Source: Candidatus Levyibacteriota bacterium (lineage in GTDB: Bacteria; Patescibacteriota; Microgenomatia; Levybacterales; UBA12049). From it: DNA of 64,000 bases. The position numbers were made by a program, and so were the translations under genes. Where the stretch lies: positions 125,656 to 189,655 of the forward strand of contig DAIDHL010000002.1 of assembly GCA_027459745.1 (NCBI GenBank), in the 5' to 3' direction. This document shows, one piece after another, positions 29,554 through 61,653 of this stretch (the first letter of the stretch is position 1; every line of letters begins with the position of its first letter). Under the pieces are notes generated by a model that was not told the DNA's origin, searched no databases, and saw only the letters and a program-made list of their open reading frames with translations.

Positions 29554-29641
29554 GGAGAGTGGGCCGGACGGTAAGGCACAGGTTTGCTAAACCTGCAGGG
29601 TCTTAAACAATCCTGAGTGGGTTCGACCCCCACACTCTCCG
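29554..29641 (+). tRNA. tRNA-Ser (anticodon GCU), class II with a long variable arm
   Basis: Acceptor GGAGAGT/ACTCTCC with discriminator G. Anticodon loop UUGCUAA. Variable arm CAGGGUCUUAAACAAUCCUGAG. T-arm GUGGG-UUCGACC-CCCAC. No encoded CCA. Confidence 0.85.
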
Positions 29642-35453: not shown

Positions 35454-35460
35454 CGAAGAG

Positions 35461-35882
35461 TGGAGATGTCGAGCTATGAACTCGAGTCCGAAAAATGTTA
35501 ATAAAAACGTCTACAAGCGTAGTTTATCTTTGAAATGTCCTTTTATTCTTTTCCGATAAACAGGAAAATAAAAGTAAGAACTCTTTTTAACCAATAATAG
35601 GGGAATTCAATCCCTATTATCTGTTTCCCAACTGTGTTATGCCCATATCATCCCGTTGGGGAAGACAATATGAACAGGCTTCTCAAACCTTATGCAGCGA
35701 GTGCATATGCAGGAGCGAATCCTGCGTTTGAGCGACCACCGTCAGCCAACACCGAGGTGGTGAACTGGCGGATGCGTTGGCTAATGCCATCAGCATTTAT
35801 ATTTTGATTCTATTTTACGGCTGTGAATCATCGCCGGCTTGCAGTTGTTAAAGAGCACTTAACGTCGAATCAAATCATCCCC
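35461..35882 (-). ncRNA. ssrA: tmRNA (SsrA), standard one-piece, about 422 nt
   Basis: The 5' end GGGGAUGAUUUGAUUCGACG matches the tmRNA 5' consensus. The 3' end carries a T-arm UCGAG-UUCAUAG-CUCGA followed by CAUCUCC-A. The acceptor GGGGAUG/CAUCUCC contains a G3-U70 wobble (the alanine identity element). An internal ORF ends ...GCU CCU GCA UAU GCA CUC GCU GCA UAA (..APAYALAA-stop). It lies directly downstream of smpB on the same strand. Confidence 0.85.
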
Positions 35883-55920: not shown

Positions 55921-58371
55921 ATGATAAAACTTGATGGTATCAGAGGAAAAGTATTTTTAGATCGTTATGCTCTTAAAGATAAAGAGGGTAATTTGATAGA
56001 ACATACTCCAGAAGAAACTTGGAGAAGAGTCGCCAGAGGAATTGCTCAAAGCGAAAAAGCCAAGGATCGAGAGTACTGGGAGGAAGAATTTTATAAAGCC
56101 ATGGCAGATTTCAAATTTGTGCCAGGTGGTCGTATTCTGTCTGGCGCAGGTACAGGTTTTCAGGTAACATATTTCAATTGTTTTGTTATTCCCTCACCTA
56201 AAGATTCTCGCCATGGTATTTTGGAATCACTTGGTCAACTAGTAGAAATTCAGGCACGCTCGGGAGGGGTAGGTTTAAATCTTTCTTCGTTACGTCCTAA
56301 GGGTGCTCGTGTAAAAAAGGTCAATGGTACTTCTTCTGGGCCCGTTAATTGGGCTACGCTTTTCTCAGTCGCTACTCATGATATTGTGCAGCAAGGTGGA
56401 TCACGTCGTGGTGCAACCATGTTGATGTTAAATGACTGGCATCCAGATATTGAAGAATTTATTACCGTCAAAGAAGATTTGACAAAAATCAGTGGTGCTA
56501 ATTTATCAGTCTGTATTTCAGATGCGTTTATGGAGGCTGTGAAAGCAGATAAAAGTTGGGAGTTAGTTTATCCTGATACTAGTGATCCAGATTACGATGA
56601 AAAATGGAATGGTGAATTGGACCAATGGAAAGCCTTGGGTAAAGAAGTTAAAGTATTCAAGACTGTAAAAGCGCGTGAATTGTGGGATCTTATCTGCACA
56701 GCTGCTTGGAGATCAGCCGAGCCAGGTCTACATTTCCTAGAGAGATCCAATAAGCGTTCTAATACTTGGTATTTCGAAAGATTGGTCGCTACTAACCCTT
56801 GCGGAGAACAACCTCTCAGTGGTTGGGCTGTTTGTAATCTAGGAGCTATGAATTTGTCAGCATATGTTAAAGATGCAGATTTAGCTAATGAGAAAGCTGG
56901 TTGGTTTGATTACAAGTCTTTTGCTCAGGATGTAAAAGTCGCCATGCGTTTTATGGATAATGTCATTGACCAGACACACTACTTTTTCCCAGAAAATGAG
57001 AAGGTTGCTAAGGATATTCGCAGAACTGGTCTGGGTATCATGGGGTTAGGAGATACTTTAATCAAAATGCACATTCGTTATGGTTCTGAGGAATCAATCC
57101 CCGTAGTAGAAAAGATCTTTCAAACCTTGCGTGATAGTGCATACGAAGCTTCTAGTGATATAGCTGCAGAGAAGGGTAGTTTCCCCAAATTTGATAAAGA
57201 TAAATATTTACAAGGTTACTTTATAAAAGCTTTGCCCAAGAAGTTACGTGACAAGATTCGTGATCAAGGAATTCGCAATGGAGTATTGCTTACTGTAGCT
57301 CCCACTGGTACCACAAGTTTAGTGGCTGGCGTATCGTCGGGTATTGAGCCTGTCTATGAGTTTTCTTTTTTGCGCAAATGGAGAGGTGGAGAAGAAGTGA
57401 TGTATCATCCGCTTTATGACGCCTGGATCAAAAATCATCCAACAGCAGCTAAACCAGATTATTTTTGTAGTACCAATGATTTAACTCCTTTAGAACATGC
57501 CAAGGTGCAGGCTGTGGCCCAAGAATATATTGATTCTAGTATCTCAAAAACGGTTAATGCTCCTAAAAATCATACAGTCGATGATGTGAAGACACTCTAT
57601 ATGTTGGCCTATGATATGGGTTTGAAAGGTATTACTTATATGCGGGATGGTTCACGCCAAGGTGTGTTGGAAAGAATAGAAGAGAAAAAAGAAGAAAAGA
57701 AAGAAGAAGTTAAACCTGCTATTCCAGCTACTCCGCGGGTAGCTCGTCCGATGATGCTGATGGGTACCACTTACAAAACTGAAAGTCCAGTTGGTAATAC
57801 TTACATTACCATCAATCACGATGAGAAGAGTGATCCATTTGAAGTATTTATTAGTAATGGAAAATCTGGATCAGATGTTTCAGCTATGGCAGATGCTTTA
57901 GGTAGAATGATTTCCTTTATTCTGCGTATTCATAGTTCTGTGCCTCAACGTGAACGTGTACGCGAAATAGTGTCTGAATTGACAGGTATTGGCGGAGCAC
58001 GTACTGTTGGCTTTGGACCTAATCGTGTACGCTCATTACCTGATGCAGTAGCCAAGATTTTGGCTCGACATTTTGAGTTTAGAGTTAACGGAAAAGTAGA
58101 AGATAAAGAAGTCATTGCCGCGGTAAAAGCCGAGCCCATTCTGGCTGCTTCGGCTAGCTTAACTAATGGACATGCTGCAGTAATAACTCAGCCAGTAGAT
58201 ATGCCAGCTACACCAGTAGCTCAACAATTGACTTTGACGGCTGATGCTCCAGTACAAATGGAACATAGTACAACTAATTTATTTGATATGTGTCCTGAAT
58301 GTCAGACATATAGTTTTGCTTACGAAGAAGGTTGCAAAAAATGCTATAGCTGTGGCTATAGTGAGTGTTAA
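55921..58371 (+). CDS. nrdJ: adenosylcobalamin-dependent (class II) ribonucleotide reductase NrdJ
   Basis: FVPGGRILSGAGTG and TNPCGEQPL active-site motifs. C-terminal CxxC...CxxC zinc ribbon. 2 nt downstream of nrdR. Confidence 0.9.
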   Translation: MIKLDGIRGKVFLDRYALKDKEGNLIEHTPEETWRRVARGIAQSEKAKDREYWEEEFYKAMADFKFVPGGRILSGAGTGFQVTYFNCFVIPSPKDSRHGILESLGQLVEIQARSGGVGLNLSSLRPKGARVKKVNGTSSGPVNWATLFSVATHDIVQQGGSRRGATMLMLNDWHPDIEEFITVKEDLTKISGANLSVCISDAFMEAVKADKSWELVYPDTSDPDYDEKWNGELDQWKALGKEVKVFKTVKARELWDLICTAAWRSAEPGLHFLERSNKRSNTWYFERLVATNPCGEQPLSGWAVCNLGAMNLSAYVKDADLANEKAGWFDYKSFAQDVKVAMRFMDNVIDQTHYFFPENEKVAKDIRRTGLGIMGLGDTLIKMHIRYGSEESIPVVEKIFQTLRDSAYEASSDIAAEKGSFPKFDKDKYLQGYFIKALPKKLRDKIRDQGIRNGVLLTVAPTGTTSLVAGVSSGIEPVYEFSFLRKWRGGEEVMYHPLYDAWIKNHPTAAKPDYFCSTNDLTPLEHAKVQAVAQEYIDSSISKTVNAPKNHTVDDVKTLYMLAYDMGLKGITYMRDGSRQGVLERIEEKKEEKKEEVKPAIPATPRVARPMMLMGTTYKTESPVGNTYITINHDEKSDPFEVFISNGKSGSDVSAMADALGRMISFILRIHSSVPQRERVREIVSELTGIGGARTVGFGPNRVRSLPDAVAKILARHFEFRVNGKVEDKEVIAAVKAEPILAASASLTNGHAAVITQPVDMPATPVAQQLTLTADAPVQMEHSTTNLFDMCPECQTYSFAYEEGCKKCYSCGYSEC

Positions 58372-58424
58372 GTAAATGAGAATTTATTAATAATTAGAAA
58401 TTGTAAATTAAAAATTAAATGGTT

Positions 58425-58593
58425 ATCTAGGTAATAGAGGTGTAATTCCTCATCAGTGCCGCTACTGTGACCCCACTTCGCGTAAAGTTACGCGGAGCAG
58501 GGAAGACAGAAAACTAGGTAATTTTATCTTTATCCCGAGCAGGAATTTTTGTTTCTCATCAGATAAAAGTTCTCGCTTAGGAGAACTTTTTTT
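58425..58593 (+). promoter_or_regulatory. cobalamin (AdoCbl) riboswitch, compact variant, with expression-platform hairpin
   Basis: In order: GGUGUAAUUCC (GGUGnAAnUCC), GCCGCUACUGUGA (CCGCnACUGUnA), CCCCACUU (B12-box-like CCACU), and GGGAAGAC (GGGAAG). A hairpin AAGUUCUC-GCUUAG-GAGAACUU plus U7 overlaps the AGGAGA SD just before the ATG at 58594. Confidence 0.6.
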
Positions 58594-59145
58594 ATGAGAA
58601 TATTACTTCGAGCAAAGCAGTTAATAAATAACGTAATAAAACTAAACCCACTGTTATATGTTGGATTATTTGTAGCTGCTCGTTTATTGCCACATCCGGC
58701 TAATCTGTCGCCAGTTGATGCCATGGTACTATTTGCCGGGGTCTATTTAAATAGACGTTATGCGTTAATAGCTCCTTTGGTAGCCTTATTTATCTCCGAT
58801 ATGTTTTTAGGGTTTTACTGGCAAATGCCCTTCGTTTACGGGAGCTTTATCATTACTGGTTTATTGGGTTTATGGCTTAGACATCATAAGTCTATTACTA
58901 ATATCTTAGGTTTTTGTTTATTGTCGTCAGTACAATTTTTTGTTATTTCTAATTTTGGTGTTTGGTTAACTACTAGTTTTTATATTCATACTTTGAGTGG
59001 TCTAATTAATTGCTATGTGATGGCATTACCATTTTTCCGCAATAGTCTGATAGGTGATCTGGTTTATACAAGCTTATTCTTTGGAAGTTATGAGTTTATA
59101 GTTTTTAAGCTGATTAAGTACAAGCAAGTCTTAAATAAGGAATGA
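58594..59145 (+). CDS. small 5-6 TM transporter component, ECF S-component/BtuM-like (candidate cobalamin uptake protein)
   Basis: 183 aa, all-membrane. Sits between a cobalamin riboswitch and a PduO-type adenosyltransferase. Confidence 0.5.
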   Translation: MRILLRAKQLINNVIKLNPLLYVGLFVAARLLPHPANLSPVDAMVLFAGVYLNRRYALIAPLVALFISDMFLGFYWQMPFVYGSFIITGLLGLWLRHHKSITNILGFCLLSSVQFFVISNFGVWLTTSFYIHTLSGLINCYVMALPFFRNSLIGDLVYTSLFFGSYEFIVFKLIKYKQVLNKE

Positions 59146-59212: not shown

Positions 59213-59776
59213 ATGAAAACCAAGATTTATACCAAAACAGGAGATAAAGGTAAAACATCATTAGTCGGTGGTAAAAGAGTAAACAAATTCGATTTACGAG
59301 TGGAAACCTATGGCACGGTGGATGAGCTTAATTGTGCTACTGGAATCGTTATCGCTCAAATTAAAAATTCAAAATTAAAAATTAAAAATGAAAAATCATT
59401 AATTATAAGTTATTTGGAAGAGATTCAGAATGATTTATTTACTATTGGATCAACATTAGCAAATCCCAATAATCCAGCATTACCACAATTAGAAAAGCGC
59501 ATTAAAGAATTGGAAAAGATAATTGATCAAATGACTGAACATTTACCCGAATTAAAAAATTTTATTTTACCTGGGGGTAGTCTGACTGGTGCACAATTAC
59601 ATTTGGCTAGAACTATTTGTCGAAGAGCTGAACGCAGGGTTGTTGAATTAAAACAGACAGAAGAAATTGATGATTTAATTGTAAGTTATTTCAATCGTTT
59701 ATCAGATTTTCTATTTACCGCTGCCAGATATGCCAATCATCTGAAAAATAAAAAAGAAACAATTTGGAGAACTTAA
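59213..59776 (+). CDS. PduO-type ATP:cob(I)alamin adenosyltransferase
   Basis: N-terminal IYTKTGDKGKTSL signature of the PduO family. Confidence 0.85.
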   Translation: MKTKIYTKTGDKGKTSLVGGKRVNKFDLRVETYGTVDELNCATGIVIAQIKNSKLKIKNEKSLIISYLEEIQNDLFTIGSTLANPNNPALPQLEKRIKELEKIIDQMTEHLPELKNFILPGGSLTGAQLHLARTICRRAERRVVELKQTEEIDDLIVSYFNRLSDFLFTAARYANHLKNKKETIWRT

Positions 59777-59779
59777 GAT

Positions 59780-60955
59780 ATGCTGCAAGCAGTTGAGATG
59801 GGGCGACAGTTGCCTCAAAATATTGAGATTCAAAAAAATAATCATTTATCGTTCAATCTATCCCATGAGAGAGATCGTGCCTTGGAAGCAAGTCGTACAG
59901 GCAATAGAGAACAAATGAAATTAGCTCGTGATGGCTTTATACAAAACACGCAATATTGGGCCAAAGAATATATAGGTGGCATACAAACTACACATTATCT
60001 TTGGCACATTGTTGATGATGGAGGTAAGACTCGTTTATATCATCCCTCTTTCGGTTATGCGGATGATGCTTCGCAGCGCGCTTTAGAACAGAATGTACCT
60101 GAGTATGAAAAAAAGAGAAGGCAAGTTGAACATAACGTGACTAAGCAGTTTTCTCAAGTATTAAAAGATGCCCACAAAGGCGATGTTTTCGTCTGGACTA
60201 GTCCTCCTCCTGAAGTAAAGGGAATTGAAAAAGGAGTATATGGTGGATATACTATGACTCACTTATATGAGGTCGATGAGGTTACACTTAATGAAGGCGG
60301 AAAAACAAAATCTGTCAAGATTCTCAAAGGTAGAGATGTAAAAAATTACTTAAAAAATGAAGAACATAAAGAGTTACTCGAGACTTTAGGTGAACAAAAA
60401 ATTTTTGAAGGTATACCATCTTCTCTGGATCTTTTAGCAACTTTAGTAAAAGTTAAATATGGAACTTCCAGTCGTGATGTAGAAACAAAAATAAAACAAA
60501 TAGAAAAATATTTAGGACCGTCAGAAAATGAAACAAAAGTTAAAGAATTTGAAAAAATTTTGCAGGATAATGAATGGATGTTAGAACGTATATTCCAAAT
60601 GTTGATTTTGGAAGATGTTAATATTTCACAAGCTTTTATAACTAATTATTTTAAACAATACGCACAAGCAATTGAGCTGGCACAAAGCAAAGGTTCAGAT
60701 AAAACATTGGACGCACTGGGTTTTGTAGCACATGTCGCGGCAGGTGGCAGTTGTGGCGCAGGTGTGGGATTTGGAGATGCAGCTAAAAATGCTTTTGGTT
60801 ATCAGCCCACTGCGCTGGCCGCAAGCTTAAGTGGTGAAAGAACCTTAAAGTGTAAAGAATGTCCCTTATGTAAGAGCAAAGATATAGAGGCAGTTATTAA
60901 AGATGGTAAAATTCAATGTCCTTCTTGTATGGGTTCTGCCGAATATGCTTGTTAG
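59780..60955 (+). CDS. hypothetical 391-aa protein with C-terminal 4-Cys zinc ribbon; last gene of the riboswitch-controlled operon
   Basis: No family assignable. C-terminus CKECPLC...CPSC. Starts 3 nt after the PduO stop. Confidence 0.5.
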   Translation: MLQAVEMGRQLPQNIEIQKNNHLSFNLSHERDRALEASRTGNREQMKLARDGFIQNTQYWAKEYIGGIQTTHYLWHIVDDGGKTRLYHPSFGYADDASQRALEQNVPEYEKKRRQVEHNVTKQFSQVLKDAHKGDVFVWTSPPPEVKGIEKGVYGGYTMTHLYEVDEVTLNEGGKTKSVKILKGRDVKNYLKNEEHKELLETLGEQKIFEGIPSSLDLLATLVKVKYGTSSRDVETKIKQIEKYLGPSENETKVKEFEKILQDNEWMLERIFQMLILEDVNISQAFITNYFKQYAQAIELAQSKGSDKTLDALGFVAHVAAGGSCGAGVGFGDAAKNAFGYQPTALAASLSGERTLKCKECPLCKSKDIEAVIKDGKIQCPSCMGSAEYAC

Positions 60956-61005: not shown

Positions 61006-61653
61006 ATGGACGATAGTACACAACAAAATAATAATTCACAGCAGGCTGCCAATGGTTCATCTGATGATCAGGTAACTCTAGTCCCTGTAGCAGATAATGC
61101 ACAACATACAAGAGAACAAGTTCTCTTAGAACAGAGAGATGAAGATGCAGCTACTCAACCATCTTCTACTACAGTAAGCCAAGATGATCGTATTAAGCAA
61201 CTTAATATAGCACAATCTCAAGCCAAACCTGCGCAATCTTATCATCCAGTGAGTTCGTTGCATAAAGAACAAGCACCAGTTCGTGCAAACGAGACAATGC
61301 GTTCCTCAGAGCCAGGAGAAAGTCAACCAGAAATAAGCGCTGAGTTGAAGGAAATTGGTATAGAAGAATCACAGGATGAAGAACAGCTCAAACTATCTGC
61401 AGAGCAAGAATTAGCCGGTTTGGAACCTGCTAAAGAATCTGTTCCTATGAACTCGCATATAACAGCTAATATGAAGTTCCCTCAACAGCCATTTACAGCC
61501 AATGAGGCGGATGATATAATCAAAACCACTTCACCCGATGAGTCGAAACACTGGCTGGCTGTATTGGTGCTATCGATTCTACACAAACTTCATATTAAAG
61601 AATTGCGTAAAAAGGAAGAATCAAAGTTGTCCTTAGTAGAAAAAGCTGCTTGA
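61006..61653 (+). CDS. acidic Gln/Glu-rich hypothetical protein with hydrophobic C-terminal helix
   Basis: Low-complexity Q/E/S-rich N-terminal region. C-terminal WLAVLVLSILHKLHI. Confidence 0.45.
   Translation: MDDSTQQNNNSQQAANGSSDDQVTLVPVADNAQHTREQVLLEQRDEDAATQPSSTTVSQDDRIKQLNIAQSQAKPAQSYHPVSSLHKEQAPVRANETMRSSEPGESQPEISAELKEIGIEESQDEEQLKLSAEQELAGLEPAKESVPMNSHITANMKFPQQPFTANEADDIIKTTSPDESKHWLAVLVLSILHKLHIKELRKKEESKLSLVEKAA

Follow-up and report, generated by a model that had tools for sequence, protein, structure and literature searches.

The window analysed here is a 64-kb stretch (64,000 nucleotides) of a Candidatus Levyibacteriota contig. The element in question lies in the 222-nt spacer (58372-58593) between nrdJ, which encodes a class II ribonucleotide reductase dependent on adenosylcobalamin (AdoCbl), and an open reading frame (ORF) for a DUF6580 membrane protein. 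We read the segment at about 58412-58593 as a functional class-II cobalamin (corrinoid) riboswitch that acts as a genetic OFF switch, with a probability of about 0.82. By sequence and structure the element belongs to this riboswitch family; it would further be expected to bind a corrinoid, to terminate transcription and to be co-transcribed with nrdJ. The surrounding genes are:

55921-58371, + strand: nrdJ (TIGR02504 NrdJ_Z, 588 bits; PF02867)
58594-59145, + strand: DUF6580 membrane protein, 183 aa (PF20221, 6.5e-50)
59213-59776, + strand: PduO-type ATP:cob(I)alamin adenosyltransferase (PF01923, 3e-60; TIGR00636, 6e-57)
59780-60955, + strand: orphan protein of 391 aa with a Cys4 ribbon at its C-terminus, beginning 3 nt after PduO; no family
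61006-61653, + strand: acidic low-complexity protein of 215 aa, whose gene may be the fourth of the unit; no family

The aptamer and its family

The aptamer, a four-way junction of P3-P6, measures about 103-113 nt and is made up of the following parts:

58421-58430, + strand: 5' strand of a fused P1/P3 helix, GGUUAUCUAG, with P3 proper at 58426-58430 (from model alignments, duplex prediction and P3 covariation)
58431-58435, + strand: J3/4, GUAAU, aligned to GAAAu of RF01689
58436-58452, + strand: P4 hairpin with the L4 T-loop (AGAGG-UGUAAUU-CCUCA), fitting the consensus GUGAAAUUC; all five P4 pairs covary
58455-58463, + strand: P5/L5, AGU-GCC-GCU; U57-G61 (UGCCG, 58457-58461) is the L5 half of a kissing loop
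58465-58509, + strand: P6 (CUGU/ACAG, strands 58465-58468 and 58506-58509) with a hairpin extension at 58469-58505
58510-58513, + strand: J6/3, AAAA, the hallmark of 'type A' aptamers, found in 24 of 62 model matches in relatives
58514-58523, + strand: 3' strand of the P3/P1 helix, CUAGGUAAUU, with P3 proper at 58514-58518

DUF6580 homologs run into the thousands, the nearest coming from Levyibacteriota, Shapirobacteria and other candidate phyla radiation (CPR)/Microgenomates lineages. As relatives we took 80 loci (L001-L080) from species-representative genomes, L001-L020 being the 20 closest. Model R1, a covariance model trained on 12 relatives without the window and constrained to the RF01689 helices, matches the window once, at 58408-58529 (61.1 bits, E about 5e-15); the next-best match in the window scores 11.7 bits. 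The closest relative, L001 (65% protein identity), has the same nrdJ-spacer-DUF6580 layout and a riboswitch scoring 53.4 bits with RF01689, and its core is nearly base-for-base identical to that of the window. A chance resemblance to cobalamin motifs in A/T-rich intergenic DNA is hardly credible. The missing Rfam match at the gathering threshold would suit it, but it would have to explain the R1 score from an independent model, the near-identity to a bona fide RF01689 member, the covariation described below and the B12-related genes on either side.

Rfam recognizes the family below threshold. At the gathering scores (36.5 bits for RF01689, 50 bits for RF01482 and 31.5 bits for RF00174), the scan of the whole window returned no cobalamin match, the transfer-messenger RNA (tmRNA) and a tRNA being its only matches. 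With a permissive threshold, RF01482 (AdoCbl) aligned with the spacer over its full length at 30.7 bits (E 7e-4). RF01689 (AdoCbl-II, formerly 'AdoCbl-variant') likewise aligned end to end, with the aptamer alone (28.5 bits, E 3e-5), the P6 loop holding an insertion of 36 nt. RF00174 (class I) gave no match at gathering and scored below the other members of the cobalamin clan (CL00101), so that formal membership is reached in none of the three. We attribute the miss to the 37-nt P6-loop hairpin, which incurs insertion penalties, rather than to the absence of the element: P6 reads CUGU-UACAG-ACAG in L001 versus CUGUGA[CCCC...GGG]AAGACAG in the window.

An earlier note on this DNA, made from the sequence alone, had proposed a compact cobalamin riboswitch akin to the short AdoCbl-variant class. 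The R1 match and the full-length RF01689 alignment bear this out (we count the latter in favour, yet it falls 8 bits under gathering), and homologous loci hold abundant compensatory changes in the proposed helices. Some of the anatomy has to be redrawn. The core strings that the note listed do occur in order: GGUGUAAUUCC at 58439-58449, which aligns to the L4 T-loop consensus GUGNAAUUC, then GCCGCUACUGUGA at 58458-58470, CCACU at 58473-58477 and GGGAAGAC at 58500-58507. However, neither CCACU, taken for the B12 box, nor the GGG of GGGAAGAC belongs to the core. Both sit in the P6-loop hairpin, which is an insertion relative to the models and is missing in L001. The true equivalent of the B12 box is formed by the P6 3' strand, J6/3 and the P3 3' strand, AAGACAGAAAACUAGG at 58503-58518. 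The B12-box consensus is rAGYCMGgAgaCCkGCcd; AAGACAGAAAACUAGG matches its AG.CMG....C..G frame but is degenerate at the AAAA of J6/3. As for the peripheral extension, said to be seemingly absent, the P2 module and the large P7-P11 extension are indeed missing, whereas P6 bears a single, short and stable hairpin.

The core helices covary. In two alignments, both model-fitted and thus somewhat favouring the structure, standard pairs are in excess over shuffles. When 61 distinct relatives are aligned, standard pairs fill 91.7% of the P3-P6 cells (67.6% in shuffles) and double-sided changes number 230 (72 in shuffles), and no slid control exceeds 44% paired. We take the signal to be real because these controls stay low. 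A second, independent set, mainly of metagenomic origin and with the window among its 67 distinct sequences, gave 90.5% versus 74.5% and 174 versus 56 double-sided changes; it is informative for P3 and P4 only, as its search pattern fixed P5, P6 and J6/3. The P5 pairs covary as well (UA 39, AU 21; GC 57, AU 3). RNAalifold, run on 12 relatives, recovered just P4 and P6 along with a dubious J3/4-L5 pairing, and the RF01689 consensus structure was used instead.

The P6 extension is 37 nt long and consists of CCC/GGG, a 9-bp inner stem and an AAGU loop, set within conserved UGA...AAGA nucleotides (-20.9 kcal/mol, z = -4.6). Relative to the models it is an insertion of 36-38 nt, leaving 39 nt between the P6 strands CUG and CAG where RF01689 has a loop of about 7 nt. 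Among the 62 model matches in relatives this segment ranges continuously from 6-7 to 52 nt, the usual form being CUG-U[GA]A-hairpin-[GA]AAG[UC]-CAG, and a metagenome scan for the P6-hairpin form found 75 loci with hairpins of 19-47 nt. A type-A aptamer on metagenome contig SDBT01012311.1 (L118, 4324-4443) carries a 39-nt extension homologous to that of the window (about 27/39 nt), while the rest of its leader and its downstream gene (287 aa) are unlike the window's. L118 offers no compensatory support for the inner stem, the differences being mismatches. The extension has the look of a peripheral stem that is tolerated and drifts; it sits at the L6 apex, flanked by nucleotides that would dock into the L4 T-loop, as L6 nucleotides do in solved cobalamin riboswitch structures (PMC6158498; PMC7367189).

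It could be asked whether this insertion broke the L4-L6 docking and left a decayed riboswitch, with the hairpin and its U-run serving as a constitutive nrdJ terminator or attenuator. The scores under every Rfam gathering threshold, the lack of an insertion in L001 and the uncompensated mismatches in L118 point that way. Even so, decay is very improbable. Every conserved core position is intact (R1, 61 bits), and the insertion falls at the L6 apex between U[GA]A...AAG, where nine R1 matches in L001-L020 and the 75 metagenome loci bear hairpins of 16-52 nt. Moreover, the P13/L13 hairpin and the strong anti-terminator described below are preserved, and a constitutive terminator would need neither. 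The published description of class II (Cbl-II) also permits a P6 stem-loop pointing away from the core (PMC7367189).

At the gathering threshold the 20 closest loci yielded 12 RF01689 matches and one RF00174 match. Rfam 15 passes the siblings with a minimal loop and misses all nine R1 matches in these loci whose P6 strands lie 16 nt or more apart. The aptamers missed are:

L002, 2706-2838: P6-hairpin aptamer
L004, 2412-2510: P6-hairpin aptamer
L008, 4073-4175, - strand: P6-hairpin aptamer
L009, 1280-1383: P6-hairpin aptamer
L009, 6053-6155, - strand: P6-hairpin aptamer
L013, 1476-1598: P6-hairpin aptamer
L015, 2443-2562: P6-hairpin aptamer
L018, 4195-4308: P6-hairpin aptamer
L020, 4054-4159: P6-hairpin aptamer

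Class-II switches with a short P6 hairpin fall between the RF01689 and the RF00174/RF01482 models, and B12 regulation is therefore under-called in CPR/Patescibacteria genomes.

Predicted kissing loop and expression platform

Downstream of the aptamer, the spacer holds a second hairpin, two mutually exclusive folds and the translation start:

58533-58544, + strand: P13/L13 hairpin, UCC-CGAGCA-GGA; L13 is complementary to L5; the stem and two kissing-loop pairs covary, with 97.7% of cells paired
58533-58554 with 58561-58582, + strand: anti-terminator, 20 bp, the minimum free energy fold of 58530-58593 (-19.4 kcal/mol, z = -3.9)
58565-58574 and 58581-58590 (stem) with U7 at 58587-58593, + strand: intrinsic terminator, AAAAGUUCUC-GCUUAG-GAGAACUUUU (-11.8 kcal/mol, z = -4.0)
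58579-58596, + strand: Shine-Dalgarno AGGAGA (58579-58584) and AUG (58594-58596), both masked in the terminator-state fold

The earlier note had described a hairpin plus U7 that sequesters AGGAGA immediately before the start codon, and the two arms, the U-run, the Shine-Dalgarno and the AUG are all in place; it had overlooked the P13/L13 kissing-loop hairpin and the anti-terminator. L5 (UGCCG) and L13 (CG(A)GCA, 58536-58541) are complementary through U57-A41, G58-C40, C59-G39, C60-G37 and G61-C36, with A38 bulged (positions given by their last two digits). A kissing loop between L5 and L13 is common to all cobalamin riboswitch classes (PMC7367189), and a bulge in L13 is known from env8 (PMC10327014). 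The motif CCCGAGCAGG is unique in the window, where 0.1 would be expected by chance.

P13/L13 is the same in L001 and the window. When 59 aptamers of relatives were searched strictly, 47 proved to be followed by an equivalent hairpin whose loop has 6 nt. The hairpin lies about 10-45 nt 3' of most aptamers of the clade, with the loop CGAGCA conserved and the stem covarying (UCC/GGA, ACC/GGU, UCU/AGA, CUUC/GAAG and others). To score the kissing loop, L13 candidates were picked without reference to L5. In the 30 distinct excerpts scored, 98.7% of the cells for these five pairs are paired. U-A at position 1 is replaced by A-U and G-C, and G-C at position 2 by A-U, U-A, C-G and G-U, with no mismatch at either, and the bulged base can be A, C or U. 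Compensatory replacements number five at two positions, each one in a single sequence, which makes the covariation support for the predicted kissing loop good but not overwhelming. GAGCAGG in the P6 hairpin (58494-58500) was considered as an internal mimic of L13 (58538-58544) and set aside as uninformative: it is missing from the L001 aptamer, and by a rough estimate (not computed) chance alone should make some 7-mer recur within about 200 nt.

The terminator stem differs from that of L001 by three compensatory pairs, with the loop and Shine-Dalgarno unchanged, and a 10-bp stem followed by a U-run (U6-U8) is conserved in nearly all type-A relatives. The anti-terminator takes up both P13 strands and L13 and then the U-rich tract, the 5' arm and loop of the terminator, and the GGA of the Shine-Dalgarno. 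Forcing P13 with L13 unpaired turns the fold into P13 plus terminator (-13.8 kcal/mol). The same fold logic recurs in most type-A relatives, in which UCCCGAG is complementary to CUCGGGA in the 5' arm or loop of the terminator, and L025 compensates (UCUCGAG/CUCGAGA). A pairing of UUUUAUC (58522-58528) with GAUAAAA (58562-58568) was tried as the main anti-terminator and was superseded by the much stronger 20-bp, P13-based one.

This P13, anti-terminator and terminator logic has been proven by compensatory mutagenesis in the Priestia megaterium metE corrinoid riboswitch (PMC10327014). Since the platform matches that validated design, B12 is expected to switch expression off, and the fold predictions are consistent with a kissing-loop-gated terminator of the metE type. 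The two systems are not the same throughout. The metE aptamer is a large class-I aptamer with UCCCG in L5 and five contiguous kissing-loop pairs, and the anti-terminator of the window uses both P13 strands with L13 and reaches the Shine-Dalgarno.

In the proposed mechanism, binding of a corrinoid (most likely AdoCbl) would let L5 kiss the CG-A-GCA of L13. With P13 held in this way, the otherwise more stable anti-terminator would be blocked, the terminator (58565-58590 plus U7) would form and transcription would halt just before the DUF6580 start codon; in any full-length RNA, the Shine-Dalgarno and AUG would be masked. Without ligand, the anti-terminator would form and allow expression of the candidate B12 transporter, the PduO adenosyltransferase and the two orphan proteins. 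Transcription would thus end after nrdJ when B12 is replete and read into the acquisition genes when it is scarce.

A transcriptional and translational action together, as suggested in the earlier note, is reasonable: beside the terminator and U7, UCUCAU (58554-58559) can pair with AUGAGA (58594-58599), extending the terminator helix over the Shine-Dalgarno and AUG. Purely translational control, with the U-run incidental, would draw on the same pairing, on a Shine-Dalgarno that lies in the loop and 3' arm of the hairpin, and on the precedent of env8 and btuB, both translational switches. We regard it as improbable, given that the 10-bp stem and U-run are conserved so widely among type-A relatives and that the anti-terminator specifically buries the terminator 5' arm.

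Several observations weigh against a functional riboswitch of this kind. Every Rfam cobalamin family scores the element below its gathering score, the B12-box segment is degenerate in J6/3, and L5 is UGCCG, as throughout the window's clade, where the published consensus is UCCCG (PMC10327014). A simple terminator scan did not call the leader hairpin, probably since four of its U's were counted in the stem. The anti-terminator exceeds the OFF state in stability by about 5.6 kcal/mol, so that the switch would require kinetic control or an equal gain from ligand and kissing loop. In addition, the free platform of L001 already folds to the terminator. Finally, J1/3 is ambiguous in the window, being either a fused helix with 5/6 pairs or an 8-nt bulge behind a P1 with 6/6 A-U pairs, which makes any assignment to subclass Cbl-IIa or Cbl-IIb, and hence of the ligand, tentative.

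Class and likely ligand

In the published scheme, Cbl-I aptamers have a P2 module and a P7-P11 extension and bind AdoCbl; Cbl-IIa has a bulged J1/3 and a loop on P6 and binds hydroxocobalamin (HyCbl) or methylcobalamin (MeCbl); and Cbl-IIb, for which no structure has been solved, has a short or paired J1/3 and a short P6 hairpin and binds AdoCbl (PMC7367189). Class-II aptamers span a range of selectivities, governed by J1/3-J6/3 (PMC6158498). The short P6 hairpin of Cbl-IIb is present in the window, and J1/3 is the part that can be drawn in two ways. Either GGUUAUCUAG and CUAGGUAAUU form one fused 10-bp P1-P3 helix or, as in the RF01689 alignment, AAAUUA at 58412-58417 pairs with 58519-58524 in a perfect 6-bp P1. 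In a comparison of 76 type-A sequences, pairing reached its peak with 0-2 nt separating P1 from P3 and had none at 7-8 nt. Because of this family-wide peak we favour the fused, Cbl-IIb-like reading.

AdoCbl is accordingly the likeliest effector, a lean somewhat beyond even odds that draws on the P6 hairpin, the fused reading of J1/3 and the context of PduO and NrdJ. The same riboswitch, with the same mechanism, might instead be Cbl-IIa-like and prefer HyCbl or MeCbl, or respond broadly to corrinoids, which we hold to be a tentative but serious alternative. It finds support in the perfect P1 with its 8-nt bulge, in env8, the structural archetype of RF01689, which is selective for HyCbl/MeCbl (PMC7367189), in the spectrum of class-II selectivity (PMC6158498) and in the plain P6 loop of L001. 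It has against it the 0-2 nt peak, the fact that the bulged register consists entirely of A-U pairs in an A/T-rich flank, and the agreement of a short P6 hairpin and paired J1/3 with the published AdoCbl-binding architecture. Moreover, AdoCbl is both a product of the regulated operon (through PduO) and the cofactor of the neighbouring NrdJ.

With RF01689/env8, the Cbl-IIa archetype that binds HyCbl (PDB 4FRN/4FRG), the element shares its size and the order P1-P3-P4-P5-P6, the L4 T-loop GUGNAAUUC, an L5-L13 kissing loop with a bulged L13 base, and the lack of a P2 module and P7-P11 extension (PMC7367189; PMC10327014). It differs in its P6, capped by the 37-nt hairpin rather than a loop of about 7 nt, in J6/3 (AAAA versus AGCG) and L5 (GCC, within UGCCG, versus aCCU), in a J1/3 that is probably paired rather than a bulged T-loop, and in a platform built on a terminator where that of env8 is translational. 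With Cbl-IIb (the scheme of Johnson et al. 2012, per PMC7367189) it has in common the P6 hairpin, probably the short or paired J1/3, the kissing loop and the association with AdoCbl metabolism. Against this likeness, that subclass was defined from few sequences and without a structure, the J1/3 of the window is ambiguous, and sibling type-A elements share the core without a P6 hairpin, so the hairpin does not define a class in this clade. Two further systems are not close in sequence: the Mycobacterium tuberculosis ppe2 B12 riboswitch, which is translational with an upstream ORF (PMC11260477), and the B. subtilis yvrC riboswitch, which retains the P2 module (PMC7367189). All features map onto known cobalamin riboswitch features, and the element is a sub-threshold class-II member in an under-studied phylum, not a new kind of riboswitch.

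The clade offers natural L5-L13 covariation and a clean P13, anti-terminator and terminator design. Sibling aptamers with and without the P6 hairpin could reveal the role of that hairpin and probe the structurally uncharacterized Cbl-IIb-like architecture.

Transcription unit and neighbouring proteins

The riboswitch stands right after the B12-dependent nrdJ, as the earlier note had observed; the gap after the nrdJ stop at 58371 is 43 nt to the aptamer as drawn above and 40 nt to the alternative P1 strand (58412). Of 24 type-A loci, 15 have the end of nrdJ at -14 to +93 nt relative to where the riboswitch model match begins, and in many relatives the aptamer starts about 0-40 nt past the nrdJ stop. 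In the window nrdJ is itself preceded by nrdR. A simple promoter scan found no sigma-70-like site on the + strand in 58200-58430, a result that is uninformative for CPR promoters, and a simple terminator scan found no terminator between nrdJ and the aptamer. Because nrdJ lies so close upstream and no recognizable promoter intervenes, read-through from nrdJ is likely. We infer that the riboswitch is most likely an intercistronic attenuator on this read-through, that nrdJ is probably the upstream cistron of its transcript, and that the terminator would double as that of nrdJ.

It is less likely, and on balance we think it unlikely, that the element is a classical riboswitch in a 5' untranslated region with a promoter of its own in the nrdJ-aptamer spacer or the 3' end of nrdJ. 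The spacer at 58372-58411 is A/T-rich, so a CPR promoter could lie there, which counts against read-through, and nrdJ is not immediately upstream in 8 of the 24 type-A loci. The two negative scans and the short nrdJ-aptamer distances in relatives speak for attenuation of read-through.

The 'three-gene salvage operon' of the earlier note is roughly right in that a candidate transporter and PduO are there; the regulated operon probably comprises four genes, however, of which the third and fourth are orphans rather than established salvage genes. The switch would mark a B12 acquisition module in organisms unable to make the cofactor yet reliant on NrdJ for DNA precursors. It also provides guilt-by-association leads, namely DUF6580 as a candidate corrinoid transporter, its DUF4430 partner in relatives and the orphan family of about 390-500 aa. 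Among the by-products of the analysis, we consider the more interesting to be the Rfam blind spot for P6-hairpin class-II members, the co-residence of type A with the 'type B' aptamers described below and the riboswitch-linked orphan family.

The AF2 model of the DUF6580 protein has six helices (pLDDT 91). Its best PDB matches are RibU, FolT, ThiT and 4huq_S, all weak (TM about 0.55-0.64, Foldseek E 0.3 or worse), and besides PF20221 there is a weak match to PF07155. Compared by sequence with PDB chains the protein gave no match, so that a link to BtuM is not shown by sequence, and nothing on DUF6580 was found in the literature searched. On the strength of the model, we regard the protein as a candidate corrinoid transporter resembling the S-component of energy-coupling factor (ECF) systems.

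In relatives, a membrane-anchored DUF4430 protein of about 125 aa is encoded between the type-A riboswitch and DUF6580; DUF4430 proteins are presumably similar to transcobalamin. The whole window contains no DUF4430 homolog. The genes are at:

L016, 2437-2811: DUF4430 gene
L033, 2560-2943: DUF4430 gene
L020, 2617-2997: DUF4430 gene
about 12 other loci: DUF4430 genes

The 391-aa orphan family (59780-60955 in the window, 4127-5311 in L001, 24 ORFs in L001-L080) has no Pfam domain and no structural match, and only 13 close homologs were found among 5.8 billion proteins. Its motifs are YWAKEYIxGIKTTHYxWEI, RLFHPxFGYADD, SPPPEG, YGGYTMTH, GRDVKN and GGSCGxGxGF, and there is the C-terminal Cys4 ribbon. 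The conserved cysteine in GGSCG is a candidate corrinoid ligand. Thirteen of the 24 members stand directly behind a cobalamin riboswitch, in relatives usually a 'type B' riboswitch of their own. Type B has AUCC, AGCC or ACCG in J6/3, GUGAA in J3/4 and the P13 stem CUUC/GAAG. It lies after PduO and before a protein of 430-500 aa, and is absent in the window and L001, where the 391-aa gene follows PduO directly. Examples are:

L004, 4123-4211: type B riboswitch
L012, 4139-4227: type B riboswitch
L015, 4032-4121: type B riboswitch
L019, 3997-4087: type B riboswitch
L020, 4054-4159: type B riboswitch
other loci: further type B riboswitches

In L009, aptamers of both types stand in tandem (1138-1226 and 1280-1383), 54 nt apart, ahead of an orphan-family gene (504 aa) and the genes for DUF6580 and PduO. 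It is conceivable, though quite doubtful as a whole, that type A (J6/3 AAAA, L5 UGCCG, fused P1-P3, optional P6 hairpin) and type B (J6/3 AUCC/AGCC, J3/4 GUGAA) are distinct CPR subclasses sensing different corrinoid forms. In such a scheme type A would be an intercistronic gate, letting nrdJ transcripts continue into the genes for uptake and adenosylation only under coenzyme scarcity, and the orphan family a new corrinoid-processing or corrinoid-binding protein.

The 215-aa protein (61006-61653) is acidic and Q/S-rich, with a hydrophobic segment near its C-terminus. ORFs resembling it occur in nine related loci, several of them directly after the orphan family. Elsewhere in the window, the two RNAs returned by Rfam are:

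35458-35882, - strand: tmRNA (RF00023, 112 bits), much of it inserted sequence that the model lacks
29554-29641, + strand: tRNA of 88 nt with a long variable arm (RF00005, 46 bits)

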